From: Deltaproteobacteria bacterium HGW-Deltaproteobacteria-13
GTDB taxonomy: Bacteria; Desulfobacterota; Syntrophia; Syntrophales; Smithellaceae
Length of the DNA stretch: 64,000 nucleotides
Direction: 5' to 3'
Assembly: GCA_002840555.1 (NCBI GenBank)
Contig: PHBJ01000005.1
Location: 174,045-238,044, forward strand
The notes beneath the pieces were generated by a model that was not told the DNA's origin, made no database searches, and saw nothing but the letters and a program-made list of their open reading frames with translations. Every line of letters begins with the position of its first letter. Position 1 is the stretch's first letter. Shown piece after piece: positions 19,972 through 58,797 of this stretch. The position numbers were made by a program, and so were the translations under genes.

Positions 19972-20264
19972 AAAATCTTTTCCATTCGCGACTGTGCTCA
20001 TTTTTTGAGCATAAAGAATTACAGTGAATGCTCCATAGCACATTCCCGCGCCCGGCGCACTAACCATAAATTTCTTTAGTCTTTTGGCGTGGAGTGTTAA
20101 TGAAGCTGTGATGTCAATCAGAAGGTCATGACGATTGCGGATGACAATATATATAGGCTTCAGTGAATTGTTATATTGAAGTACTTCCCCTGGTACTCCC
20201 CTTCAAATAAAGTGCTTGACCTGACTACCGCTTCATAGTTTACGCTAGTTTGAAAGAGGTCATA

Positions 20265-20837
20265 ATGCCCGAATCCAAAACAAAACAATCCGCTCCTGCG
20301 CGCGACTTTGCCGGTTCCATGACGATCGGCGAACTGTCCAAACGTTTCAGCCTGTCGCGGAGTACGCTCCTTTATTACGATTCTATCGGGCTATTGAAGC
20401 CGTCCGCCAGAAGCAAGGCAAATTACCGGCGTTACACGCAGGAGGATGCCGGACGATTGGAGAGGATCTGCATGTATCGCCAGATGGGGCTCTCCATGGT
20501 GTCGATTGGTGAGATTCTCAAATCGCCGAAGAGCAGTGCGCGTAATATCTTGGAGAAACGGTTGCTGGCGCTGGCAAAGGAGATCTGTCGTTTGCGTGAA
20601 CAGCAACACATGATTATCCGAATGCTGGGGGATCGTTCGCTCCGCAAGCGTATTCCTGTGTTGGACAGGGAAGGCTGGGTCTCGCTTTTGAGGGCTTGCG
20701 GCCTTGATGAGGATGGAATGCATAAATGGCATCAGGAATTTGAGAAGCTTTCTCCATTGCTGCATCAGGAGTTTTTGGAAGGATTGGGCATATCCGGCAA
20801 AGAGATTGAAGTGATCCGTCAATGGTCTCAAACTTGA
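20265..20837 (+). CDS. MerR-family transcriptional regulator
   Basis: N-terminal HTH MTIGELSKRFSLSRSTLLYYDSIGLLKP. ATG at 20265 is preceded by GAAAGAGG. Confidence 0.8.
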   Translation: MPESKTKQSAPARDFAGSMTIGELSKRFSLSRSTLLYYDSIGLLKPSARSKANYRRYTQEDAGRLERICMYRQMGLSMVSIGEILKSPKSSARNILEKRLLALAKEICRLREQQHMIIRMLGDRSLRKRIPVLDREGWVSLLRACGLDEDGMHKWHQEFEKLSPLLHQEFLEGLGISGKEIEVIRQWSQT

Positions 20838-20912
20838 TATTTTTGTGGCGCCGCATTCTTCGAGATGATGCGGATGCCCATTATCAGCAACATCATAAAG
20901 GGAGTCATCCAT

Positions 20913-21662
20913 ATGAAAAATAAACTCATGATGGGATTGTGGAAGTATATGATCCATGTGCCCCCATTCCTGTGGGAAAAGCAGATTGCCAAAGGTAAAA
21001 AGAACTACGCGGACCACCTTGCCTTTATGTCCGTGGAACACCGGTTGGTACACCATTTTGTGGTGCGGGAACTTCCGTTTGCCGCAAAGCCGTTATCGCC
21101 TGAATTTATAGCGAATGTCCTGAATATTCCCGTACAACGGGTCATTTCCATTCTGGATGATCTGGAATCGCATATGACCTTCATCTTCAGAAATGCGGAC
21201 GGTTCAGTCGAGTGGGCTTATCCGGTGACAGTTGAAAAAACGCCTCACAGGGTAACGTTTCACACCGGTGAAACTCTCTACGCAGCCTGAGCAGCCGACG
21301 CTTTTGCGACGCCCTTCGTGCAAGGGCAATTGAGAAAAGACTTCCTGTCGGTTGTTGTCCGGACAGAATGCGCCCATTGCGGAAAGGCCATGGAATTAGA
21401 GATCGACAGTGATCTGAACTGCCGCGTGAAAGACGAGGCCTGCAATCCTGTTGTCTTCGTACCTGATGTCAATCTTATCGAACTCGACGATGAAAGCATC
21501 ATCAACGCCTTTTGACGCGAGAGTGTATTCTTCTGGTCAGAAGAACATGCAAGAGATTATCGGCAAAAGGTTCACCGTTTGCGCGGCGCATACATGAACG
21601 TGGATCAGATGAGCATGGTAACAAAAATGATCCAGAGCGTTCTTTTTGGATTTGAAAAATAG
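20913..21662 (+). CDS. MerB-like (alkylmercury lyase family) protein with two in-frame UGA codons read as selenocysteine
   Basis: ORFs 20865-21290 and 21318-21515 and the unlisted stretch 21516-21662 are all in one frame, separated only by TGA at 21288 and 21513. From memory of MerB, LYAA-U-AAD aligns with LYAWCALD and NAF-U-RESVFFWS with [11 protein letters not shown]. A hairpin follows each TGA. AAGGGAG RBS lies before ATG 20913. Confidence 0.7.
21292..21354 (+). promoter_or_regulatory. SECIS-like stem-loop after the first UGA
   Basis: Lower stem CAGCCGAC/GUCGGUUG (one G-U pair). Apical hairpin GCCCUU-CGUGC-AAGGGC at 21311-21327. Confidence 0.5.
21523..21550 (+). promoter_or_regulatory. 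SECIS-like stem-loop after the second UGA
   Basis: UUCUUCU-GGUC-AGAAGAA at 21528-21545, with the apical loop about 22 nt after the UGA. As I recall, GGUC is also the apical loop of the E. coli fdhF SECIS. Confidence 0.6.
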
Positions 21663-21765
21663 CAGGACACTGTCCCCTATACGCTCTATGTCATAGCGAG
21701 GAGCCCCACGCGCAGAGCCTGCCCTCGACCTGATCCCTTTGGTGTGCGTTGCCGTCTCCTAACCG

Positions 21766-27638: not shown

Positions 27639-28271
27639 TTACCTTTCCTTCAAAGATGAATTGATTATTTCATTAATCCCGCGGGCGGCCGCTTCAGGAT
27701 CTGCAGACGCGCAAATCGCCGAGACAACGGCAGCGCAGTCGGCGCCAGCCTTCACAACTTCTTTTACATTGGATTCGTTAATCCCGCCTATCGCGACCAG
27801 AGGATGCCTGCTGAAAGCTTTTATCCGGGAGAGGCCTTCCAACCCCCACGCCCCTTTGGTGTCGGTTTTTGTCGGCGTGGCAAAAACCGGACTGACGCCG
27901 ATATAACTAACATCGAGTTTTTGACTTGCCTCAACATCTTCCCATGTTTCCACCGACAGGCCGATGATCGCCTTTTGTCCCATGAGTTTTCGAACCATTT
28001 CATAAGGCATGTCTTCCTGCCCGATATGCACGCCTTCGGCGTCGCAGGCCATAGCCACATCAACGCGGTCATTGATGATCAGCGGAACTTTATACGGCGC
28101 CAGAAGTTTTCTAATCCTTCCGGCTTCTTCCACAAAAAAACGGGTGGAAACATCTTTCTCGCGCAATTGCACAAAAGAGGCGCCGCCTCTGACCGCTCCG
28201 ATAACGACTTCTTCCAGAGGTTTGCCTCCGCACAAGCCGCGATCGGTGACCAGATACAATCCTCGCATCAT
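27639..28271 (-). CDS. thiE: Thiamine-phosphate synthase
   Basis: LYLVTD N-terminus, QLREKD and VAIGGI motifs. Confidence 0.9.
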   Translation of the reverse strand: MMRGLYLVTDRGLCGGKPLEEVVIGAVRGGASFVQLREKDVSTRFFVEEAGRIRKLLAPYKVPLIINDRVDVAMACDAEGVHIGQEDMPYEMVRKLMGQKAIIGLSVETWEDVEASQKLDVSYIGVSPVFATPTKTDTKGAWGLEGLSRIKAFSRHPLVAIGGINESNVKEVVKAGADCAAVVSAICASADPEAAARGINEIINSSLKER

Positions 28272-29074
28272 TAATCCTCAACTTTTAAACGCCGGTGGAT
28301 ATCATCTTCAGACAGGCGATAAAGGTCATCCAGAAAATAAGTCTGAAGACTTCCCGGTCCGGAGGCAGCTTCTGCGGCCATTTCTCCGGCAATGCCCATC
28401 ACCGCCATAGCCTCGGCGGTCGCAGCAAAAGGTTGTCTTTCCACCGCGGCAAAAGCTCCGCATAAAGCCGATGCCGTGCAGCCTAATCCCGTCACTCTGG
28501 ACATCATAGGATGGCCGTTTTTAATCTTCAGAATTTTTTCTTTATCGACAATGTAATCCGTGGGCCCGCTGACACAGACCACGCAATGGTGAGTTTCACT
28601 TAACCTTCGTGCCATATCAATGGCCGCCTCCGAAGATGCGGCGCTGTCGACTCCCTTGGTTTTGGATTTGTCATCGTATAGAGCCATGATCTCCGAAGCA
28701 TTTCCCCGAATGACAGCAGGCGGTTCGCTATGAATCAGGTCTCTTGCCGTTTTCGTCCGGTAAGCGGTTGCTCCGGCTCCTACGGGATCTAAAATAACGG
28801 GGATGCCTTTTTTCCGGGCCTGACGTGCGGCCTTAAACATTGAGTTGATCCAGTATTCACTTAAGGTCCCGATGTTGATCACCAGGGCCGAAGCGATATT
28901 AACCATTTCCTCCACTTCTTCTTCCGCATGCGCCATCACGGGAGACGCTCCGATTGCCAGCAGTGCGTTGGCCGTATTATTCATGACCACGTAATTGGTA
29001 ATATTATGCACAACCGGTGACTGACAACGAATCAATTCTATGGACTTGAAAATTTCCGTCGCTGTGATCTTCAT
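28271..29074 (-). CDS. thiM: Hydroxyethylthiazole kinase
   Basis: PVVHNITNYV, NIGTL and CVSGPTDY motifs. Start trimmed to the ATG pair at 29077/29074 after GGAG. Confidence 0.9.
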   Translation of the reverse strand: MKITATEIFKSIELIRCQSPVVHNITNYVVMNNTANALLAIGASPVMAHAEEEVEEMVNIASALVINIGTLSEYWINSMFKAARQARKKGIPVILDPVGAGATAYRTKTARDLIHSEPPAVIRGNASEIMALYDDKSKTKGVDSAASSEAAIDMARRLSETHHCVVCVSGPTDYIVDKEKILKIKNGHPMMSRVTGLGCTASALCGAFAAVERQPFAATAEAMAVMGIAGEMAAEAASGPGSLQTYFLDDLYRLSEDDIHRRLKVED

Positions 29075-29143
29075 CATTTCTCCTTTTTCCATTTTATGTA
29101 AATTATGCCAAACAATCAATTGATATTCTGAAAATCAAACCCA

Positions 29144-29180: not shown

Positions 29181-29194
29181 GATAAATCAACAAG

Positions 29195-29282
29195 CTCTTC
29201 TCCCTACGCTGGCATTATCCAGATCAGGTTCAACGGGTATAATCTCAGGTCCGGCTAGCGCCGGGCCACCCCTTTTGCTGTC
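29195..29282 (-). promoter_or_regulatory. TPP (THI-box) riboswitch aptamer
   Basis: Minus strand reads GGGGUGGCCCGGCGCUAGCCGGACCUGAGAUUAUACCCGUUGAACCUGAUCUGGAUAAUGCCAGCGUAGGGA. This matches the conserved CUGAGA and ACCUGAUCUGGAUAAUGCCAGCG cores. Confidence 0.9.
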
Positions 29283-29338
29283 CATATCAACTATATTAAA
29301 TTTCGTCAATCAAGATTAATAATCTTCCTTGACTCCGA

Positions 29339-43100: not shown

Positions 43101-44804
43101 TTATTTGAATACGTTTGATAAATCGGGAAATGGCGAAACAGGATCCGCCGTTTCTTTATTTTCTTCCCGCATCAGCGTAATACCGTCAAGAATATAAATC
43201 GTTTCCGGCTGTCCTTTAAAAACATCTTTCAAATGCAGAATGGAACCTCTTTTGCATATGATCCTGTCGCCATATTCGGGAATGGAAGGAAATTGGAAAA
43301 CTATTTTGCTGCCGTGTCCTTCCAGGATAAAGTTTTCCATCGAGAACTCCCGCGTCCAGTTATAAAATTTTTTATTCAATGCATTATAAAAATAAACATC
43401 CCCGTAAATTTTTTGAAGCGATCCGGAATAGCGGCCTTCATTTACAAAATAATTCCCGAAGGCCAGAGCGCAGACAGGAGAAGAAGAAGCGAGATAGGAG
43501 GAAAGAAAAACCTGATAAAATTTATGATAATCTTTATATTCACTCTCCACTTTCCCGTAAACTGCCAGCGACTCCTGTTTTATTTGCAGATTTTGCATAA
43601 ACACGTTTTTGATATCAACCATTCCCCAGGCGGTGACGGAAATGAAAATGATACCGGCAAATAAAACAACTTTTTTGCTATGGAAACGATTAAAATATCC
43701 AAGCCGCTGTAGATATAATAACATTAAGAATAACATCAGCCCGGAAAGGCCGAGCGCCGGGATCAGATACCAGCCGGCCGGATGTTTGGCAACCATCATC
43801 ACGGCGAGCAGCTGCGCCACTGTCAACGAGGCCAGGATTCTTAAGATATTGTCCTGCCAAACCGCTTTTCTTTTTGCCTTTTCCCCGCCGAGGGAAGTCC
43901 ATCGGAATATCATGATAAACCCTGTCGAGGAGAGCCAGACCAGGAAGAATAAAGGGTTTCCTAAAAACAGATTCATGATATTTTGGAAATAGGCTTCGAG
44001 ATATATTATCCGCGAACCACCACTTCCATAATAACCGGTATGAGTAAGGATACGGTAATACCAGTTAAATAAATTTTCATATAATGAAATGATCGGCCAT
44101 GTCCACAAAACAAAACTGAAAACCGTCAAAAACAAGAAACCAATTTTATTTCGTAGTTTCGGCAAGGCGAAAAGAGGAATAATCAGCAAAGGGAGGAAGG
44201 TCAACTTTGTCGCCACACCAAACCCTGAGACCAGCGCCAAAATGATCATGTACAGGTGAGCTGATTTCAGAAGATTTTTGCTTAAGACCATTCTCATCAG
44301 AATCAATACAAACAGCAAACTGGAAAACAAAAGAAGGGGCTCCGGAGAAACCCTGGGCAAACCGTCAATCAGTATATTTTTAGAAAAAAACGGTGAAAAT
44401 TGCACAAGGAGACTCAGCCAGATATTTTTAGTCAAGGTAAAGGCCGTCAGGCCGATAAAGAACAGCAGCAGGGTGTTAAAGGTTACCAGGAGAGCGTTCA
44501 TGACGGTCAAATAAAATTCAGGGTTTTTGAGAACAGCAAATTCGAGGCTGTCTTTTCCGGAGAAGTCAAGCGCGTGGGAAATTTTCATGGTTGCCGCCCC
44601 CAGCATTTGAAGCGTTGTGCCCGGATTGCCGGTCGTATCCGTTTGTTTGGATTCGGCGAGCGTCAGGGAACTCAAGACATAAAGATATTCGGGATCAACG
44701 TTGGAACCCAGCCAATAGGGACCTTGCGCATAATGTAAAATCCCCGCGGTAAAGGCCAATACGGCCGGCAATATGAGTAATACAAACACAGATAATTTTT
44801 TCAT
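43101..44804 (-). CDS. Polytopic membrane protein, GT-C-fold glycosyltransferase-like (ArnT/PMT-like), copy B
   Basis: More than 10 hydrophobic helices, a first-loop acidic motif VDPEYLY, and a ~150-aa C-terminal soluble domain. Diverged paralog of 45191-46903. Function is inferred from topology only. Confidence 0.4.
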   Translation of the reverse strand: MKKLSVFVLLILPAVLAFTAGILHYAQGPYWLGSNVDPEYLYVLSSLTLAESKQTDTTGNPGTTLQMLGAATMKISHALDFSGKDSLEFAVLKNPEFYLTVMNALLVTFNTLLLFFIGLTAFTLTKNIWLSLLVQFSPFFSKNILIDGLPRVSPEPLLLFSSLLFVLILMRMVLSKNLLKSAHLYMIILALVSGFGVATKLTFLPLLIIPLFALPKLRNKIGFLFLTVFSFVLWTWPIISLYENLFNWYYRILTHTGYYGSGGSRIIYLEAYFQNIMNLFLGNPLFFLVWLSSTGFIMIFRWTSLGGEKAKRKAVWQDNILRILASLTVAQLLAVMMVAKHPAGWYLIPALGLSGLMLFLMLLYLQRLGYFNRFHSKKVVLFAGIIFISVTAWGMVDIKNVFMQNLQIKQESLAVYGKVESEYKDYHKFYQVFLSSYLASSSPVCALAFGNYFVNEGRYSGSLQKIYGDVYFYNALNKKFYNWTREFSMENFILEGHGSKIVFQFPSIPEYGDRIICKRGSILHLKDVFKGQPETIYILDGITLMREENKETADPVSPFPDLSNVFK

Positions 44805-45190: not shown

Positions 45191-46903
45191 TTAATAACAA
45201 TGAAAACGGGACTGTTCGAAATTCACAGCCTTTATGGCAATGCCTTCCAAAGCATATATATTAGCATAAATACCATCAGAAGCATCCTTAAAATGCAAAA
45301 CTGAGCCTGTCCGGCATGCTATCAACGCGTCTTTTTTCTTTCTATAATCCGGCGGACCATAAAAGATTATTTTAGTAACCTGCTTTTTGATAATCATATC
45401 TTCAATAAAGAAACTCTTCGTCCAGGTGTAAAATTCTCCACTGCATAGATTATAAAAATAGGTCTCTCCGTAAATTTTTTGAAGAGTTTCCGAATACAGA
45501 CCTTTAGAAAATCGCCCCTCTGATATCTCTTTTATATGGGAATATTTATGACTTGCCATATGATCACCATAGGACAGACCGGCAAGGGGAGAAGGAGTAA
45601 TAGAGCGAGGTTGCTGATTAATGAAAATCTTCAGATAATTTTTATACTCATTTTCCGCTTTCCGGTAATACGTCAAGGTATCATTTTTTATCAGCAGAAG
45701 TTCCCTGAATGTATCTTTAAACTCAAAGACTCTCCAGGCGCCGCAGAAAGCAAGAAAAACAATAATAAAGAAAGTAACTTTTTTAGTATCAAGATTACGA
45801 AAATAGCCACGTCTTTGTAAAAAGATTAATTGCAAAAACAGCAGAAAGCCTATCAGACATAGAGCAGGCAGGGCATAGCGTTCGGCGTTCTGCTTAATAA
45901 TAATCAAAGCGGAAAACAGTTGTGAAACTATTACCGCAAGCAGGACTTTGAAAGATATATCATGCCAAACTTTTTTTCTCGCCGCTGAAGACCAATTAAA
46001 TATAATGATAATCAAAGCAGGAGTCAAAATAAACAGTATGTTTAATGGGTTATATAATAATCCGGTTAACATGTTCAGAAGATTTATTTTTATAGATGCA
46101 GTGTCTATCCCGGAAGGGCCATAACCATACCAGTGTGTGTTGGTGAGTGTAATATAGAAAAAATGCAATATACGTTGATATTGTGAATGAATTGGCCAGG
46201 TCCACAATATTGCGCTTGCAGCGGTTAAAAGCAGGAACCCGATTTTATTTCGCAACTTTGGTAAAGCTATTAAGGGAATAATAAGTAAAGGAGCAAAGGT
46301 CACTTTTGTGGCTATGCCAAAACCTGAAATAAGCGACAAAGCCACCATATACCAATGAGCAGATTTATAGATATTTTCATCGACGACCATTTTCACCAGA
46401 ATTAACACGAAAAGCATACTCGTAAACAATAAGAGAGGTTCACAGGAAATATTATTTAAGCCCCATCTTAATGTTATGTCAGAAAAAAAAGGTGAATATT
46501 GTAACAGGAGAGCCAGTCCAATATTTTTTGTTAAATTAAAAGTCACCAGACCGATAACAAATAATAATAAAACGTTTAAGGACACTAATACTATATTTAT
46601 AACTTTCAAATAAAATTCCGGATTCTTGAGAACTGCAAATGCCAAACTGTCTTTTTCAGAAAAATCAAGAGCGTGCGTGATCTTCAAACTGACCGCTCCC
46701 AATATTTGAAGAGTTGTGCCGGGATGGTCGGTAAAAAATACTTGTTTCGACTCTGCCATAGCAAGAGAACTTACCAGATAAAGATAATCATTATCTGTAT
46801 CAGAACATATATAATATGGACCTCGAGCATACTTCATGGCTGCAGCAGTTAAAATTAACGTTATCGGCAATATCAGCAATACAAACACATGTGATTTTTT
46901 CAT
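45191..46903 (-). CDS. Polytopic membrane protein, GT-C-fold glycosyltransferase-like, copy A
   Basis: Same architecture as 43101-44804. First-loop motif TDNDYLY and HPGTTLQ. Confidence 0.4.
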   Translation of the reverse strand: MKKSHVFVLLILPITLILTAAAMKYARGPYYICSDTDNDYLYLVSSLAMAESKQVFFTDHPGTTLQILGAVSLKITHALDFSEKDSLAFAVLKNPEFYLKVINIVLVSLNVLLLFVIGLVTFNLTKNIGLALLLQYSPFFSDITLRWGLNNISCEPLLLFTSMLFVLILVKMVVDENIYKSAHWYMVALSLISGFGIATKVTFAPLLIIPLIALPKLRNKIGFLLLTAASAILWTWPIHSQYQRILHFFYITLTNTHWYGYGPSGIDTASIKINLLNMLTGLLYNPLNILFILTPALIIIIFNWSSAARKKVWHDISFKVLLAVIVSQLFSALIIIKQNAERYALPALCLIGFLLFLQLIFLQRRGYFRNLDTKKVTFFIIVFLAFCGAWRVFEFKDTFRELLLIKNDTLTYYRKAENEYKNYLKIFINQQPRSITPSPLAGLSYGDHMASHKYSHIKEISEGRFSKGLYSETLQKIYGETYFYNLCSGEFYTWTKSFFIEDMIIKKQVTKIIFYGPPDYRKKKDALIACRTGSVLHFKDASDGIYANIYALEGIAIKAVNFEQSRFHCY

Positions 46904-48976: not shown

Positions 48977-50242
48977 TTACACTCCTCTGAAAATAACACA
49001 GCAATTTGTTCCGCCAAAACCGAAAGCATTGGAAAGAGCGATTTCATATTTATGTTTGCGGGCTTCATTGGGGACAACATCAATATCGGATATTTCCGGA
49101 TCGGGTATATGATTGATCGTGGGCAGGATAATATCTTTCTTCATTCCTTCAATCGTCAAAGCAGCTTCGATGGCCGCGGTCGCGCCGAGGGTATGCCCCA
49201 GCTGCGATTTGTTCGAGGACACGGGAATTTTTTCTATTTTTCTGCCGAACACTTCCCGAAGACATTTGACTTCCGCGCTGTCGCCTTTCGGCGTGGAAGT
49301 GCCGTGGGCATTGACATATTGAATATCTTCCGGTTTCAATCCGGCATCCTCAATCGTTTCCCTCATAGCGCGGATGATCGTCGGCATATTGGGGCTGGTA
49401 TAATGATGGGCATCCGATGACCACCCGACACCGAGAACTTCGGCCCTGGGTTTTAGTCCGTAAGCTTTCATCGTCTCTTCCGCCGCCAGAATAACAACAC
49501 CCGCGCCTTCGGAAAGAACAAACCCCTTGCGGTCAACACTGAAAGGCCGTGATGCCAGCGCCGGATTATCATAAGCGCGGTCTTTGGGATTAACCTTGAT
49601 CGTGGCGTTCATGTTGGCAAAACCGTGAATAATCTCCGGCAGGATGGGCGTGTCGACGCCGCCCGCCAGAACAAAATCGCAATCACCGTCCCGGATCATC
49701 CTTGCCCCGATGCCGATCGCGTAGTTGCCCGAAGCGCAGGCGCCCTGCGGCGAAAAGATCGGTCCGGTATATTTCAACAGCATTCCCGCCTTGCCGGAGG
49801 GAAGATTCGCGCATAAATTAGGCAGAAGATAAGGGCTGACCCGGAGCGCCCCGCGGTGTTCCAGATCGTGCACGGCGATGCGAAAAGCATCGGCCCCGTT
49901 GATTGCCGAACCGATAAGACAGGCCATTCGCGGAGCGATTTGAGCGTCAAGGACAATGCCTGAATTCTGCAGCGCCTCCTTGCAGACCGCCATCGTCAAA
50001 ATAACAAAAGCCGCGTTCCAGTTATAAACTTCCTTCGCGTCGGTAAAATCAAGCTCCAGCGGGTACCAGTCGGGTATCTCCCCGACGATATCGCAAGCGG
50101 ATTCCACTTTACAGCGGGTTACCTTGCGAAACCCGGCCTCGCCCTTAATCGCTCGCCTCCACGTTTTTTCAAACGTGCTTCCCAGGGGAGTGGCCGCGCC
50201 GTAACCGACAACAAAAACTTTTCTGTTTTTCGGAGCTTTCAT
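48977..50242 (-). CDS. Beta-ketoacyl-ACP synthase (FabF/FabB-like), KS-1
   Basis: Cys-His-His triad: GACASG, VNAHGTSTP, GHTLGATA. Confidence 0.85.
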   Translation of the reverse strand: MKAPKNRKVFVVGYGAATPLGSTFEKTWRRAIKGEAGFRKVTRCKVESACDIVGEIPDWYPLELDFTDAKEVYNWNAAFVILTMAVCKEALQNSGIVLDAQIAPRMACLIGSAINGADAFRIAVHDLEHRGALRVSPYLLPNLCANLPSGKAGMLLKYTGPIFSPQGACASGNYAIGIGARMIRDGDCDFVLAGGVDTPILPEIIHGFANMNATIKVNPKDRAYDNPALASRPFSVDRKGFVLSEGAGVVILAAEETMKAYGLKPRAEVLGVGWSSDAHHYTSPNMPTIIRAMRETIEDAGLKPEDIQYVNAHGTSTPKGDSAEVKCLREVFGRKIEKIPVSSNKSQLGHTLGATAAIEAALTIEGMKKDIILPTINHIPDPEISDIDVVPNEARKHKYEIALSNAFGFGGTNCCVIFRGV

Positions 50243-50256
50243 ATTTTACCTTTTTA

Positions 50257-50329
50257 TGTCATTTCGAGCGTAGCGAGAAATCTTTTCTCTAAGATTGCCA
50301 CGCCAACCAAGGGTTGGCTCGCAATGACA
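50257..50329. repeat. Palindromic intergenic element (TGTCATTTCGAG ... CTCGCAATGACA), copy 1
   Basis: The outer inverted repeat encloses AATCTT/AAGATT and GCCAACC-AAG-GGTTGGC hairpins. Homologous to 52701-52783. Confidence 0.75.
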
Positions 50330-50334
50330 TTTAT

Positions 50335-51597
50335 TTACTCAGTTCTGCGCAAAACGAGGCAGGAATTGCATCCGCCGAAGCCAAACGCGTTTTTCAGCAC
50401 AAACTCCTGTTTTACAATTCTTGCGCCCTCGGCAACACAGTCAATTTCAATTTCCCTGTCAGGGATATAATTAATAGTGGGCAGCAATGTGTCTTTAAGC
50501 ATCCCTTCCATAGCCAGGATGGCTTCGATAGCGCTGGACGCGCCCATCGCGTGGCCAAGTTGCGATTTATTCGCCGATACCGGAGGCATTTTAGAACCGA
50601 AGATGTTACGCAAAGCATCGGCTTCCACTTTATCGCCAATTTTTGTCGAGGTCGCGTGCGCGTTTACCGCGTCAACGTCTTCGGGATGTAATCCACTATT
50701 GGCAATGGTTTCCTTGATGCATCTTTGCACCGTTGTCAAATTAGGCGAAACAAAATGACTGGCGTCGGAGGTCATGGACCATCCGCTCATTTCTATCTTT
50801 GATTTGAGCCCATGGGCTTTCGCAAATTCGTCGGTTGCCAGAATAACGCAGCCGGCGCCTTCGGAAACGACAAAGCCGCGCCGGTTCGCGGAAAAAGGCC
50901 GGCTCGTTTTTTCCGGAGGTTCTTCCATCTGTCCTTCTTTCGGACGGTACGCGCCGTTCATCGTGGCAAATCCGGCAACAATCGGCTCCACCAGAGGAAA
51001 ATCCACAGCGCCGCCGATCACGACGTCCGCCATATTTCTCTGCAGCAGCATCTCACCGACAATCAGCGAAGTAATTCCGGTAGCGCAAGCCGTAATGGTC
51101 GAGCTGATCGGTCCTGTCGCTCCCGTAAGAATGGAAACCTTGCCGCCGACCATATTAATGCAGGAATTGGGATTGGTAAAAGGATGGGGCATTTTGCCTT
51201 CAGCGATCATCAGTCGATCAGCCTGCAGAACCGCGTCCAGTCCGCCGACCGCTGAACTAAAGGTAACCGCCACCCGCGGCGCAATTTCCTTCGTAATAAC
51301 AATTCCACTTTTTAACAGGGCCCGATGAACAACCAGCAGGGCGTATTTAAAGATAGGAGAGGTCCAGTGCGCCAAATCTCGAGGCTGTAAAAAAGGATAC
51401 TGACGAGTATCCACCTCGGCCACTTCACCGGCGACACGCACCGGGAAGCCTTCAGTTAATGGAAATCTGGTCAACTTCCCTATTCCGCAATTTCCGGCGA
51501 CAGCCCGCTGCCATTGAGTATCCAGATCCGTCCCCAAAGAAGATACGGCATCGTAACCCAATATTAATGTTTTCTTTGAACCCATTACCACCTTCAT
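50335..51597 (-). CDS. Beta-ketoacyl-ACP synthase, KS-2
   Basis: Cys-His-His triad: TACATG, VNAHATSTK, GHAMGASS. Confidence 0.85.
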   Translation of the reverse strand: MKVVMGSKKTLILGYDAVSSLGTDLDTQWQRAVAGNCGIGKLTRFPLTEGFPVRVAGEVAEVDTRQYPFLQPRDLAHWTSPIFKYALLVVHRALLKSGIVITKEIAPRVAVTFSSAVGGLDAVLQADRLMIAEGKMPHPFTNPNSCINMVGGKVSILTGATGPISSTITACATGITSLIVGEMLLQRNMADVVIGGAVDFPLVEPIVAGFATMNGAYRPKEGQMEEPPEKTSRPFSANRRGFVVSEGAGCVILATDEFAKAHGLKSKIEMSGWSMTSDASHFVSPNLTTVQRCIKETIANSGLHPEDVDAVNAHATSTKIGDKVEADALRNIFGSKMPPVSANKSQLGHAMGASSAIEAILAMEGMLKDTLLPTINYIPDREIEIDCVAEGARIVKQEFVLKNAFGFGGCNSCLVLRRTE

Positions 51598-54786: not shown

Positions 54787-56280
54787 TTAATTATTCTTTG
54801 CCGGATCATGGAACTCATTCAAACCGGCCAGGTATTTCATATCCGTCCGGTAACGTTCTTCCCATCCTTGTTTTGCCTGTCTGCGGCCGACAGTAAGCTT
54901 CAGCAAAGGGCGCAGCACATATGTCCAAAACGGCACCCACAGGCCTCCCTTGCTTCTGAACAGTTTGGAAGGCTCCCACCACCCGAAAATCTTCTGCCTG
55001 TGCAGCCAGACCAGATATTGCAATTGCTCCGTCTCGAGATGCCGGGTTTTAACATTGGCGCTGATGCCGTTGTATCTCTTGTAATCGTACGGATTGGTCA
55101 CCATTCCCTGATCCAGCAGTTGCTGACGCACCTCCGTCTTCGGATAGGGAGTCAGAATCTGGCAGTAGGGTATATCCGCGTCCAGCGCTTTCATAAACTT
55201 ATAGTTTTCAATAATATCCGCTTCGTCATCGTCCGGAAAACCGAAAATCAATCCGGCAATGACCATAATGCCGTATTTGTGGCATATCTGAACAGCTTTG
55301 CGCGATGCCTCCACGATATCGCCTTTGTGCGATACAACCAAGTTTTTCCGGGATACACTTTCAATCCCTAAAAAAATGGTTTTCATTCCCGCGAGAGACA
55401 TTTTACGCACCATCTCTTCGTTTCTGGATATGGAAACACAATCGGCCTGGACGTTGAGTTTCAGTCCCTTGTAATTGCGGGCGATGATCGCGTCACAAAT
55501 ATGAATGACCCGTTGGGGATCAAGCACCAGGTTGTCATCGACAATAAAAATCATGCGGGTCTTAAGGTTGTAATAAATGTCATCGATATCCGCCAAAACC
55601 CTTTCAATGGGGAACGTCCGAAAGGTCGGTCCATACATATGGTTCATGCTGCAAAAAGAACAGGTTCTGGTGCATCCCCGGGATGTCTCCATGACCTCAG
55701 CTTTCGAAGTTACGATATGATATCCTGACGTCAGGCGGCGTTTATCCCGGATGGGGATTTTAAGCCGGGAGAGATCCAGCAGTTCTCCTCTGGGATTGTG
55801 GACAAACTGCCCCCCGTCTTTATAAGACAGAGAAGGAATGTCTTCCAGCCGGTCCTTGTCCTCCAGCGCGTTTACCAGCCTCCGGAAGGATTCTTCGCCT
55901 TCTCCCCGGACCATGAAGTCGATCAGGCCGGCCTCGCTAGACGAGGCAATTTGTTCATACATCAGTGTGGCATGATATCCACCGATGACAATTTTTACTT
56001 CCGGCACAAGGCGCCGGATAAAACGGATTATTTTGATACAGGTCTCATACTGCCATGTCATGGCGGATAAACCAACCAGTTGTGGACGGATTTTAAGCAG
56101 GAGTCGTCTCAAATATCCGGTAAGATGCCTGCGTTTACGAATAAGATCGACAATAAAAATATCATGGCCGGCATCGATGTTGGCGCCTAAACTGGCAATT
56201 CCGCAATTGGATAAATGAAAGGCGCTTGCGTGCATAATCATCGGAATCACGTCCGGCATGGACATCAGAATAATTTTCAT
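54787..56280 (-). CDS. B12-binding-domain radical SAM protein (class B), B12-rSAM-1
   Basis: N-terminal Rossmann-like cobalamin-binding-type domain, then CTRTCSFC. 497 aa. Confidence 0.75.
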   Translation of the reverse strand: MKIILMSMPDVIPMIMHASAFHLSNCGIASLGANIDAGHDIFIVDLIRKRRHLTGYLRRLLLKIRPQLVGLSAMTWQYETCIKIIRFIRRLVPEVKIVIGGYHATLMYEQIASSSEAGLIDFMVRGEGEESFRRLVNALEDKDRLEDIPSLSYKDGGQFVHNPRGELLDLSRLKIPIRDKRRLTSGYHIVTSKAEVMETSRGCTRTCSFCSMNHMYGPTFRTFPIERVLADIDDIYYNLKTRMIFIVDDNLVLDPQRVIHICDAIIARNYKGLKLNVQADCVSISRNEEMVRKMSLAGMKTIFLGIESVSRKNLVVSHKGDIVEASRKAVQICHKYGIMVIAGLIFGFPDDDEADIIENYKFMKALDADIPYCQILTPYPKTEVRQQLLDQGMVTNPYDYKRYNGISANVKTRHLETEQLQYLVWLHRQKIFGWWEPSKLFRSKGGLWVPFWTYVLRPLLKLTVGRRQAKQGWEERYRTDMKYLAGLNEFHDPAKNN

Positions 56281-56354
56281 ATTGCCCCGACTCTCTCTGT
56301 CGTCACAATTCCAAACATATCAACGATAATTCTTAGGAGGTAACCATCCTTTTT

Positions 56355-57179
56355 TTAGCCGGCAGTTGCGTCATGCCGGCATTTCACCGCCATCATTTCT
56401 CTATCAATCAAAAAAGAAAGAGGCACAATTTTAAAACCATTGCCAATAAGTCCCTGCAATATTTTTTCAATCTCCGGCAATAAAATATCGCTGTCCTCTT
56501 TTTTACGCGGCGGTATGTCATGAAGGACGATAATATCGTCGGCCTTTACCTTCTTAAGTATTTTGGAGGCTAAATGTCCAACGCGGCGATTGCCGGCATC
56601 AAAAGCGCGGCAGCTGAAAGTTACACAGAACATTCCCAATTTATCCAACACCTGCGGCAGTTTGGGGCTGATGATGCCCACCGGAGGCCGGAAGGACATG
56701 GCATTCACGCCCATCTCTTTTAAAACTTCCTGAGCCCTGAATATTTCCTGATAAAGATAATTATAATTTCCCAGCATTAAAAAAGGATTATGATGGAAAG
56801 AATGATTGCCGATCGTGTGGCCGCGGGCGATTATTTCTTTGATTATTTCCGGATGCTTCAGTGCGTTTACGCCGGAAACAAAAAAAGTCGCTTTGACTGA
56901 ATACTTATCCAGCAAAGCCAGTATTTGTCCCGTTGTCGGCTCCGCCGGGCCATCGTCAAAAGTGAGCGCGACCAGATTTTGTCCGGTATGGCCGTGACTG
57001 ATCACAGGGAGGTAAAAATTGCTCTGCGGGAAAAAAGAGGCCGCGACACAGAGGATAATATAAAAAAAGGCAATGGCCGCAGCCAGCAGTGAGTTCATAA
57101 AAAAAACAACCGCGGCTGAAGATAAAAGAATTATTCCTGTGATTTGAGCGGGACTGGCAGACAAAAATTTGTTTTTCAT
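56355..57179 (-). CDS. NodB-type polysaccharide deacetylase family protein with an N-terminal membrane anchor
   Basis: TFDDGP and GNHSFHH motifs. Two N-terminal hydrophobic helices. Confidence 0.8.
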   Translation of the reverse strand: MKNKFLSASPAQITGIILLSSAAVVFFMNSLLAAAIAFFYIILCVAASFFPQSNFYLPVISHGHTGQNLVALTFDDGPAEPTTGQILALLDKYSVKATFFVSGVNALKHPEIIKEIIARGHTIGNHSFHHNPFLMLGNYNYLYQEIFRAQEVLKEMGVNAMSFRPPVGIISPKLPQVLDKLGMFCVTFSCRAFDAGNRRVGHLASKILKKVKADDIIVLHDIPPRKKEDSDILLPEIEKILQGLIGNGFKIVPLSFLIDREMMAVKCRHDATAG

Positions 57180-57390
57180 TGATCATTCCTTGAAAAACAT
57201 AGTACGGGTTTTTCAACTCGTCAAAGCTCAGCTAAAACCACACACTACATTATTATTTTTTCCGCTTCCCTATGCGAGCGGAGAAACAAAGGAAATCCCG
57301 ATGTTCTACCCTTCCTCGATCCCTCCCCTCAAACGCGGGAAGAAATACATGGATTCCCGCCAAAATCACGCGGGAATGACAGCGGAGTTT

Positions 57391-58743
57391 TTATTGAATC
57401 AGGTACTCCCACAAAGGACCCGTAAAACCGCGTCTGTAGAGCTTGGGCAAAATGCGTGTCGCCTTGGCTTCACCCGCGCCGATAATCCAGTTCAGACGGC
57501 CGTTGGCGTGATTTTCCACCGTCTGCATAATTTCCTGAGCGGTTATTTCCGGCGAACGGTAAAAGACGGGCGACAGGATATTTTGTTCCGCGGTAATTTG
57601 ACCCTCGCGCAGGGCGACATCATATAAAGCCGTGTGCGGGTATACGCGGACGCCGCAAAAAAAGAAGAAAACGGCCTTTTCGAGATTATCGATTCCGGCC
57701 AATGTTTTTTGCAGAGTCTCTTTGTTTTCGCCGGGCCCGCCCAGTAAAAAATAATGGGCAACATGCAATCCGGCGGCGAGCGCTTCCTGATGAGCGGCAA
57801 AAACATCGGCCCGAGCAAAAGGCTTGCGTAAGCTGGCCAGCACCTTTTCCGATAAAGACTCCGTGCCGAATTCCACATGCGTCAGTCCGGCATCCTTCAT
57901 CAGTTTAAAATAATCGGCCGGTGGAACAGTGGGAGCAAAAAAACCTCCCCATGGAATGGATACGCCCGCTCTTATAAACGCCTCCGCGACCTGCTTGCTG
58001 TGATCATAACTGGCGTTGAAGGCGGAATCGGTTATAAAAATATATTTGGCGCCCGCGTCCTGCAATTCCCGGGCGCTTTTGGCCACTTCACGCGGCGGGA
58101 AAAACCGCATCCGGCTGCCTTCAATGTGAGGATAAGTGCAGTAACTGCAATGAAAAGGGCAACCCCGTTTTGTTTGCAGGTTGAGCATGCCGCCGTAGGA
58201 CAGATAAAATCGGGCGTGAGTGCTTTCCGGATCGAAACGCCTGTTCATCGCGCCGTCATACGGTTCATAAACGACAGCCGTTTTTTCTTTTGTCAGGACG
58301 CCGGGGATCTGTTTCACATCCTCTTTTTTCTCCAGCGCATCAAGCAGCAGTGAAAATCTCTCGCCTTCGCCGGCAATGCCATAATCGGCATCCAGCGCCT
58401 GCATGAACTCAACGGGAAAAATAGTAAAACCGCTGCCGCCCAGAATTATCCGGGCCTTTGAATTCGTCCTTATCTGGCGGATCAAATTCTGATATTCGGG
58501 CAGGAATCCTTTGCAGTTTATTACATCGGTGTTATCAATATTCCTGATGGATACGCCGGCAAAATCGGGAGAAAACTCCCGGATCATCGCCTCCAGGCCC
58601 TCCGGATAGGTAAAATCGTTTAAATCCACAATTTTAGTCTGATAACGGGAATCCAGGGAACCGGCAACATAGTCCAACCCCAGCGGATATACCGGATAGG
58701 GAATTCTCAGAGTATTTGCCGAAATGAGCAGAACTTTCATCAT
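57391..58743 (-). CDS. B12-binding-domain radical SAM protein (class B), B12-rSAM-2
   Basis: MKVLLISANT...PLGLDYVAG N-terminal domain, then CPFHCSYC. Start trimmed to the ATG pair at 58743/58740. Confidence 0.75.
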   Translation of the reverse strand: MMKVLLISANTLRIPYPVYPLGLDYVAGSLDSRYQTKIVDLNDFTYPEGLEAMIREFSPDFAGVSIRNIDNTDVINCKGFLPEYQNLIRQIRTNSKARIILGGSGFTIFPVEFMQALDADYGIAGEGERFSLLLDALEKKEDVKQIPGVLTKEKTAVVYEPYDGAMNRRFDPESTHARFYLSYGGMLNLQTKRGCPFHCSYCTYPHIEGSRMRFFPPREVAKSARELQDAGAKYIFITDSAFNASYDHSKQVAEAFIRAGVSIPWGGFFAPTVPPADYFKLMKDAGLTHVEFGTESLSEKVLASLRKPFARADVFAAHQEALAAGLHVAHYFLLGGPGENKETLQKTLAGIDNLEKAVFFFFCGVRVYPHTALYDVALREGQITAEQNILSPVFYRSPEITAQEIMQTVENHANGRLNWIIGAGEAKATRILPKLYRRGFTGPLWEYLIQ

Positions 58744-58797
58744 AGGAATAACAACGCGCAAAATGCTTACAGGTCATGGTTTCGCGCAAGCTGAAAA

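Follow-up and report, generated by a model that had tools for sequence, protein, structure and literature searches.

Why should a bacterial gene be interrupted by two stop codons, and by no others, at the very columns where its relatives carry the two metal-binding cysteines of their active site? The question is raised by a gene in a 64,000-nucleotide stretch (hereafter, the window) of contig PHBJ01000005.1, from the assembly GCA_002840555.1 of Deltaproteobacteria bacterium HGW-Deltaproteobacteria-13. The gene encodes a relative of the organomercurial lyase MerB, and both stops are TGA. The explanation that best fits the evidence as a whole, at a probability of about 0.85, is that of a MerB-family enzyme with two selenocysteine (Sec) residues, each inserted under the direction of its own selenocysteine insertion sequence (SECIS) hairpin, and with MerB-like chemistry.

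In the list of open reading frames (ORFs), the gene appears as two fragments in the same frame, 20865-21290 (141 amino acids) and 21318-21515 (65 amino acids). Translation gives a single forward-strand frame of 249 codons, in which the only internal stops are TGA codons 126 and 201. The ATG at 20913 is taken as the start because the N-terminus that follows from it, M-K-N-K-L-M, is also that of the orthologues. The G+C content of the gene is 47.7%, that of the window 47.1%.

With both stops substituted by Cys in the query, the product matches the Pfam family MerB (PF03243) over residues 106-239, scoring 58.4 bits against a gathering score of 27 (E 9.3e-16). In a phmmer search of the PDB chains, about 175 residues align to the R831b plasmid MerB and to MerB2. 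Codon 126 is thereby aligned with Cys96, Asp129 with Asp99, codon 201 with Cys159 and C153 with Cys117; the motif LYAA[126]AADA is paired with LYAWC96ALD99, and NAF[201]RESVFF with QSFC159(C/S)HVHFF. Of the catalytic triad Cys96/Asp99/Cys159, the Asp is kept and both Cys columns are occupied by TGA, that is, by Sec, which is chemically analogous to Cys but not Cys. The fold was assessed on the AlphaFold model of a homologue, P0002, which is 67% identical and carries Trp at both Sec columns (mean pLDDT 87.9, pTM 0.85). Eleven MerB and MerB2 chains match this model at a probability of 1.0, and the next matches have E > 0.05; the target-normalised TM-scores are 0.68-0.78 for ten crystal-structure chains and 0.59 for a nuclear magnetic resonance (NMR) model. 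The predicted structure of this homologue thus has the MerB fold, and the product itself is, judging from its sequence, a member of the MerB family. The scores nevertheless stay below the cut-offs of the MerB equivalogs NF009710 and NF033555 in NCBIfam (49.8 vs 193 and 44.8 vs 200) and of the SaoL equivalog NF040728 (45.9 vs 140). The initial annotation of this DNA had described one frame broken only by the TGAs at 21288 and 21513, a likeness to MerB, and the coincidence of both TGAs with the Cys96 and Cys159 columns next to a retained Asp. All of this is borne out by the translation and ORF list, the PF03243 match, the modelled fold and the phmmer alignment, which leaves neither TGA off its catalytic column.

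Are the two TGA codons merely the marks of a decaying gene? Relatives were sought in one genome per species of the Genome Taxonomy Database (GTDB), in which 343 stretches encode them. The best 80 of these 343 loci, together with the window gene, make up the orthologue set (n=81), whose loci are 53-86% identical. The best 80 all come from metagenome-assembled genomes (MAGs), and their hosts are mostly Syntrophales/Smithellaceae, Desulfobacterales, Desulfomonilaceae and other Desulfobacterota, with a few Nitrospirota and others. A MerB-like gene disabled by two nonsense mutations would be cut into fragments by gene callers, as this one is, and would leave truncated proteins, as in the public databases, where the family consists mostly of 125-residue stubs. 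Such a gene would not, however, keep TGA at both columns in 81/81 orthologues over this range of identity, with exactly two internal stops per gene, no other stops and zero frameshifts. The residues immediately 3' of each TGA are conserved, and the median Nei-Gojobori ratio of nonsynonymous to synonymous substitution (dN/dS) is 0.145 before the first TGA, 0.190 between the TGAs and 0.081 after the second, which indicates that all three segments are translated and under selection. A pseudogene was rejected on the constancy of the TGAs and the low dN/dS, and its probability is close to nil. Where the initial annotation had thought two chance nonsense mutations unlikely, the conservation of TGA at both columns excludes chance, and the assorted stops and frameshifts that would betray decay are found in none of the 81 genes. 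Three separately translated ORFs were likewise rejected, since conserved codons continue directly past each TGA and no start is conserved in the middle piece.

A different way of reading through TGA is suggested by the protein databases. From a set of 1.84 billion representative proteins, 1023 relatives (as protein clusters) were recovered at E <= 0.001, and most of the best 150 of these stop at profile position 125, right before the first TGA. Some "full-length" proteins from JGI (P0001-P0018), on the other hand, show Trp at both columns, as would be expected of an alternative code in which TGA stands for Trp (or Gly), or of a read-through that does not depend on a SECIS. These Trp residues are artefacts of gene calling, in which TGA was taken as Trp on short contigs; the DNA behind P0016 (L088:501-1259) has stops at both columns under table 11. 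Moreover, TGA is the terminal stop of 46 of the 81 orthologues (TAA of 20, TAG of 15) and of 10 of the 29 well-supported genes in the window. Its use as a common terminator shows the genetic code to be standard, and an alternative code was rejected for this reason. The homologues cited for the Sec columns show Cys there, not Trp or Gly, the columns are those of the MerB thiol ligands, and conserved hairpins follow both TGAs at SECIS spacing. Taken together, these points make a reassigned codon or SECIS-independent read-through very improbable.

What, then, would direct Sec to these two codons? Each TGA is followed by a stem-loop, as the initial annotation had proposed, and both have now been located and found to be conserved with compensatory changes. 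Each has a G-containing apical loop 3' of the UGA, as in a SECIS, the loop being CGUGC in the first hairpin, where it begins 27 nucleotides past the UGA, and GGUC in the second, which is extended by a lower stem of 4 bp (21523-21526 with 21547-21550). For the spacing we rely on what we take to be the criterion of the published bacterial SECIS model. Across the 81 sequences, 94.2% of the cells of hairpin 1 are paired, with two-sided changes at 2/7 pairs (e.g., G-C to U-A). The corresponding figure for hairpin 2 is 98.4%, and its closing pair switches from U-A to C-G in 13 sequences, at the cost of a Trp-to-Arg replacement in the protein. When the structures are slid by 1-3 columns as a control, just 32-65% of the cells pair. 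The hairpins also constrain the peptides that overlap them, PFVQG and FFWSEE. When only sequences with the majority amino acid are counted, synonymous codon entropy amounts to 0.00-0.10 bits at P134, F135, V136 and G138 and to 0.00 bits at F206, F207 and E210. Nowhere but in codons 134-138 and 206-211 does it come close to zero, and synonymous codons vary freely at the invariant residues A102, P104, V105, T106, F182, P184 and F245. The loss of synonymous variation exactly at the two hairpins points to selection on the RNA there, and this suppression is, at the level of the aligned sequences, a SECIS signature and the strongest signal of all.

A point of reference is the SECIS of Escherichia coli fdhF, which is likewise an in-ORF hairpin just 3' of the UGA and whose 46-nucleotide sequence is 100% identical in the fdhF genes of 5419 E. 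coli genomes. Folding of the fdhF element shows a GGUC apical loop, so that the initial annotation was right to see the same loop in hairpin 2; the GGUC lies at nucleotides 22-25 from the U of the UGA in fdhF and at nucleotides 23-26 in hairpin 2. The stem sequences are unrelated, however, and no bulged U is evident here. In hairpin 1 the loop differs (CGUGC) and sits 7 nucleotides further from the UGA.

Homologues with Cys in place of Sec exist for both columns, in more distant members of the clade. In three of them (L081, L085 and L086) a TGT or TGC codon puts Cys at column 1, and column 2 is TGA; in two others (L083 and L087) column 1 is Ser and a TGC codon puts Cys at column 2. Among those with Cys at column 1, L085 and L086 lack both hairpin 1 and the PFVQG motif, and L085 has an intact hairpin 2 after its TGA. 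It is very likely, then, that the window gene encodes a conserved double-selenocysteine member of the MerB family, with an in-ORF SECIS for each Sec.

Two kinds of relatives depart further from this pattern. At L084:1501-2253 (P0021), column 1 is GGT (Gly) and column 2 is TTA (Leu), and both hairpin sequences are intact; this copy may have decayed or been put to another use, or it may have lost Sec only recently. Five full-length paralogues within the clade (P0127, P0128, P0135, P0186 and P0209, alignment A6) lack both ligands and the Asp, and from their sequences are presumably a non-catalytic branch.

Has such a protein been described before? An "alkylmercury lyase MerB-like" selenoprotein appeared in earlier surveys (PMC9312934), which Haft and Gwadz (2022/2023; NCBIfam NF040728) went on to define as SaoL: its single Sec belongs to a CU motif and aligns with Cys159, the residue aligned with Cys96 is still a Cys, and the gene is part of a nine-gene SAO locus. 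Like SaoL, the present protein is a PF03243 member of strict anaerobes with Sec at the Cys159 column and the Asp kept, and is truncated at the UGA in databases; of the traits that define SaoL, the clade shows none but the Sec at that column. Whereas SaoL has its single Sec in a CU dipeptide and a Cys at the Cys96 column, the present clade has Sec at both columns, in an AF-U-[RK] context without an adjacent Cys at the second. SaoL sits in the SAO locus with ABC transporter selenoproteins, whereas the only recurrent companions here are a regulator of the MerR or MarR type and, in some loci, a thioesterase. The MerB of mer operons (R831b; PDB 3F0O, 3F0P and 1S6L) resembles the product in fold (TM 0.74-0.78 for the homologue's model), in the triad columns and in Cys117, which corresponds to C153. 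The product differs from it in that the identity is only 15-20%, Sec takes the place of both Cys, Cys160 has no counterpart, and the N-terminus is longer by about 25 residues; nor is there a merA/merT/merP/merR operon, the gene being chromosomal and set amid housekeeping genes. Two UGA-encoded Sec residues, probably acting as soft-metal ligands, also occur in the UxxU metal-binding protein and MbdU of the 2026 inventory, but there they lie in one short motif, while here they are 75 residues apart, each with its own SECIS, and are joined by the MerB fold.

In that inventory (May 2026), which covers 119 prokaryotic selenoprotein families and subfamilies, SaoL, with its CU and one Sec, is the only MerB-like entry, and no two-Sec form is included. 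A two-Sec MerB-like family is also absent from NCBIfam 20.0, and the main texts of deep-Sep and BSepDB do not mention MerB. The titles and abstracts of literature joining merB with selenocysteine yield no apparent two-Sec form, a coverage that is incomplete and leaves room for a prior description. Thus, MerB-like selenoproteins are already known, and the two-Sec clade is apparently uncatalogued. RefSeq excludes MAGs, and RefSeq-based curation may have missed the family for this reason, the best 80 loci all being from MAGs.

What might a MerB with two selenocysteines do? MerB holds R-Hg+ through the thiolates of Cys96 and Cys159, which weakens the C-Hg bond; Asp99 gives a proton, R-H leaves, and Hg(II) remains on both cysteines (PMC10114901). 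We infer the substrate, chemistry and physiological role of the two-Sec protein by analogy, and the most economical reading of a Sec/Asp/Sec site in a MerB fold would be protonolysis of a carbon-metal bond at a bis-selenolate site. The protein would then be a cytosolic MerB-family enzyme whose two metal ligands are both Sec, U126 and U201, each inserted at an in-frame UGA as directed by its own downstream SECIS hairpin in the coding sequence. An organometal compound, with methylmercury or some other organomercurial as the likeliest substrate, would be bound through its metal by the two selenolates; the carbon-metal bond would thereby be polarised, and Asp129 would then protonate the carbon. 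The hydrocarbon would depart, and the metal would be held between the two Se atoms until it is handed to an acceptor, presumably a thiol or sulfide, because MerA is not at hand. A selenol is deprotonated at neutral pH and has a higher affinity for soft metals than a thiol, and such affinity would favour substrate capture at very low concentrations. The region of the beta-hairpin also holds C153 and C156, the latter replaced by Ser in some orthologues, and C177 (21441-21443), which is Cys in 80% of orthologues; C153-x-x-C156 and C177 could be a structural or a metal hand-off site.

The surroundings of the gene bear on its role. When all ORFs within 6 kb were clustered for the 81 loci, a regulator was found directly beside the lyase gene in about 48 of them, of the MerR type in about 24 and of the MarR type in 24. 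In 11/81 the lyase gene is followed by a 4HBT thioesterase. No other gene is recurrent in these neighbourhoods, whether merA, merT and merP, SAO transporter genes or hgcAB. A lone gene behind a MerR- or MarR-type regulator, with no mer or SAO operon and no metabolic partners, suggests inducible detoxification, in contrast to the role in energy metabolism put forward for SAO. The gene would thus serve strictly anaerobic Desulfobacterota and their neighbours as a stand-alone, inducible means of detoxification. The type of regulator splits by sub-clade (L029-L077; L001-L027), a 149-residue MarR type and a MerR type of about 190 residues occupying the same position in the same orientation.

Several observations weigh against this account of a SECIS-directed, two-Sec lyase. 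The folding energies of the hairpins are unremarkable (z -0.1 to -0.9), and even the fdhF SECIS reaches only z = -1.3; since the energies are ordinary, the evidence for the hairpins is comparative and not thermodynamic. Rfam likewise leaves them unmatched: over the whole window, the only hit at the gathering level is a riboswitch elsewhere, and at the E-value level positions 21200-21700 give only chance matches. Some of the Cys-containing homologues retain the hairpins, with the hairpin 1 sequence persisting in L081 despite its Cys at column 1 and most of hairpin 2 in L087 despite its Cys at column 2, so that the hairpin sequence would have to be partly tied to the peptide motif, or the replacements recent. 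No gene for tRNA-Sec, SelA, SelB or SelD lies in the 64-kb window, which holds no tRNA gene at all, and no tRNA-Sec occurs within 6 kb of 60 related loci (L001-L060). Sec decoding in the source genome is for this reason assumed from its lineage, the nearest loci being those of Syntrophaceae and Smithella MAGs, and Syntrophus aciditrophicus having 19 selenoproteins (PMC1794560). The insertion of Sec at positions 126 and 201 is a prediction from the comparison of sequences. As for the chemistry, merA, merT and merP, whose products could accept the Hg(II), neither recur within 6 kb of the 81 loci nor occur among the annotated genes of the window, and a bis-selenolate site might bind Hg too tightly for ready product release, which would make turnover poor.

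Could the protein be a genuine two-Sec selenoprotein and yet not an organomercurial lyase? It might cleave another carbon-metal or carbon-metalloid bond (Sn, Pb, As or Se), or it might serve without turnover as a high-affinity trap or chaperone for a metal or for methylmercury. The scores far under the MerB equivalog cut-offs, the lack of mer genes nearby and the natural variants with Ser at column 1 would all sit well with such a role. The matched MerB chains include PDB 5u79-5u7c, which we take to be MerB with organotin or organolead compounds. Haft and Gwadz, too, argued that with Sec at its metal site the substrate of SaoL is uncertain, and that metals other than Hg can be accommodated by MerB. 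However, the full Cys/Asp/Cys geometry of MerB is kept as Sec/Asp/Sec with an invariant Asp, which favours protonolysis over mere binding, and the family has no other known activity, so that a role of this kind appears somewhat unlikely. That the two-Sec protein is an organomercurial lyase specifically is about an even bet.

The features of the locus are collected in Table 1. The MerR-family regulator upstream of the lyase gene is probably co-transcribed with it or regulates it. Read by eye, this regulator lacks an obvious Cys pattern of Hg-responsive MerR, its start could be the ATG at 20265 instead of the TTG at 20250, and a TTGACC at 20217, upstream of it, could belong to a long-spacer promoter of the MerR type.

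Table 1. Features of the two-Sec MerB-like locus, in window coordinates
Feature	Position	Strand	Basis and remarks
MerR-family transcription regulator	20250..20837	+	Pfam MerR_1 E 3.7e-15, MerR E 9e-14; 75 nucleotides 5' of the lyase gene
Shine-Dalgarno-like AAGGGAG	20898..20904	+	read from sequence; 8 nucleotides 5' of ATG 20913
Coding sequence of predicted MerB-like selenoprotein	20913..21662	+	U126, U201; TAG stop at 21660-21662
TGA, predicted selenocysteine 126, column of MerB Cys96	21288..21290	+	alignment; TGA in 81/81 orthologues; Cys in L081, L085, L086
GAC, Asp129, column of MerB proton donor Asp99	21297..21299	+	invariant in alignments A4 and A5 and in 81/81 orthologues
SECIS-like hairpin 1, stem GCCCUU/AAGGGC (21311-21316 with 21322-21327), loop CGUGC	21311..21327	+	comparative
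C153-A-H-C156, C153 in the column of MerB Cys117	21369..21380	+	Cys in 99% and 88% of orthologues
TGA, predicted selenocysteine 201, column of MerB Cys159	21513..21515	+	alignment; TGA in 81/81 orthologues; TGC Cys in L083, L087
SECIS-like hairpin 2, upper stem UUCUUCU (21528-21534) with AGAAGAA (21539-21545), invariant GGUC loop 21535-21538	21523..21550	+	comparative

The remaining genes of the window are of a housekeeping kind and include a shikimate pathway operon, acyl-CoA synthetases, a thiolase, a cytochrome bd oxidase and B12-radical SAM enzymes; no other credible gene with an in-frame TGA, and hence no other candidate selenoprotein, was found in the 64 kb. Two adjoining B12-binding radical SAM genes (54787-58761, minus strand) lie near beta-ketoacyl synthase genes (48977-51597). 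A thiamine pyrophosphate (TPP) riboswitch (RF00059; 59.3 bits vs a gathering score of 54.3) at 29184-29283 on the minus strand lies upstream of the ORF at 28271-29119 on the same strand. The large ORFs at 43101-44804 and 45191-46903 have no Pfam match.

What does a MerB-like protein with two selenocysteines mean for the biology of these anaerobes? A Sec/Asp/Sec site would be a new active-site chemistry for the cleavage of carbon-metal bonds, as SaoL had Sec at one ligand only, and the gene would offer a clean case of two independent in-ORF SECIS elements within one bacterial gene. The family is large and widespread in anaerobic bacteria, and it is represented in public databases almost entirely by truncated "hypothetical protein" stubs or by miscalls of TGA as Trp, so that merB surveys of anoxic environments miss it. 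By what route methylmercury is broken down in anaerobes without a mer system is still debated (PMC10114901), and the gene is a concrete, testable candidate for such degradation. As a tentative extension, and one that is on present evidence rather unlikely to hold in full, the cassette of regulator and lyase may constitute a mer-independent, bis-selenolate enzyme that demethylates methylmercury in anoxic habitats. Hundreds of species of Desulfobacterota, Syntrophales and Nitrospirota would carry the cassette; mercury is also methylated by these guilds, by way of the selenoprotein HgcA. The lyase would have been missed by merB surveys because the databases hold 125-residue stubs.

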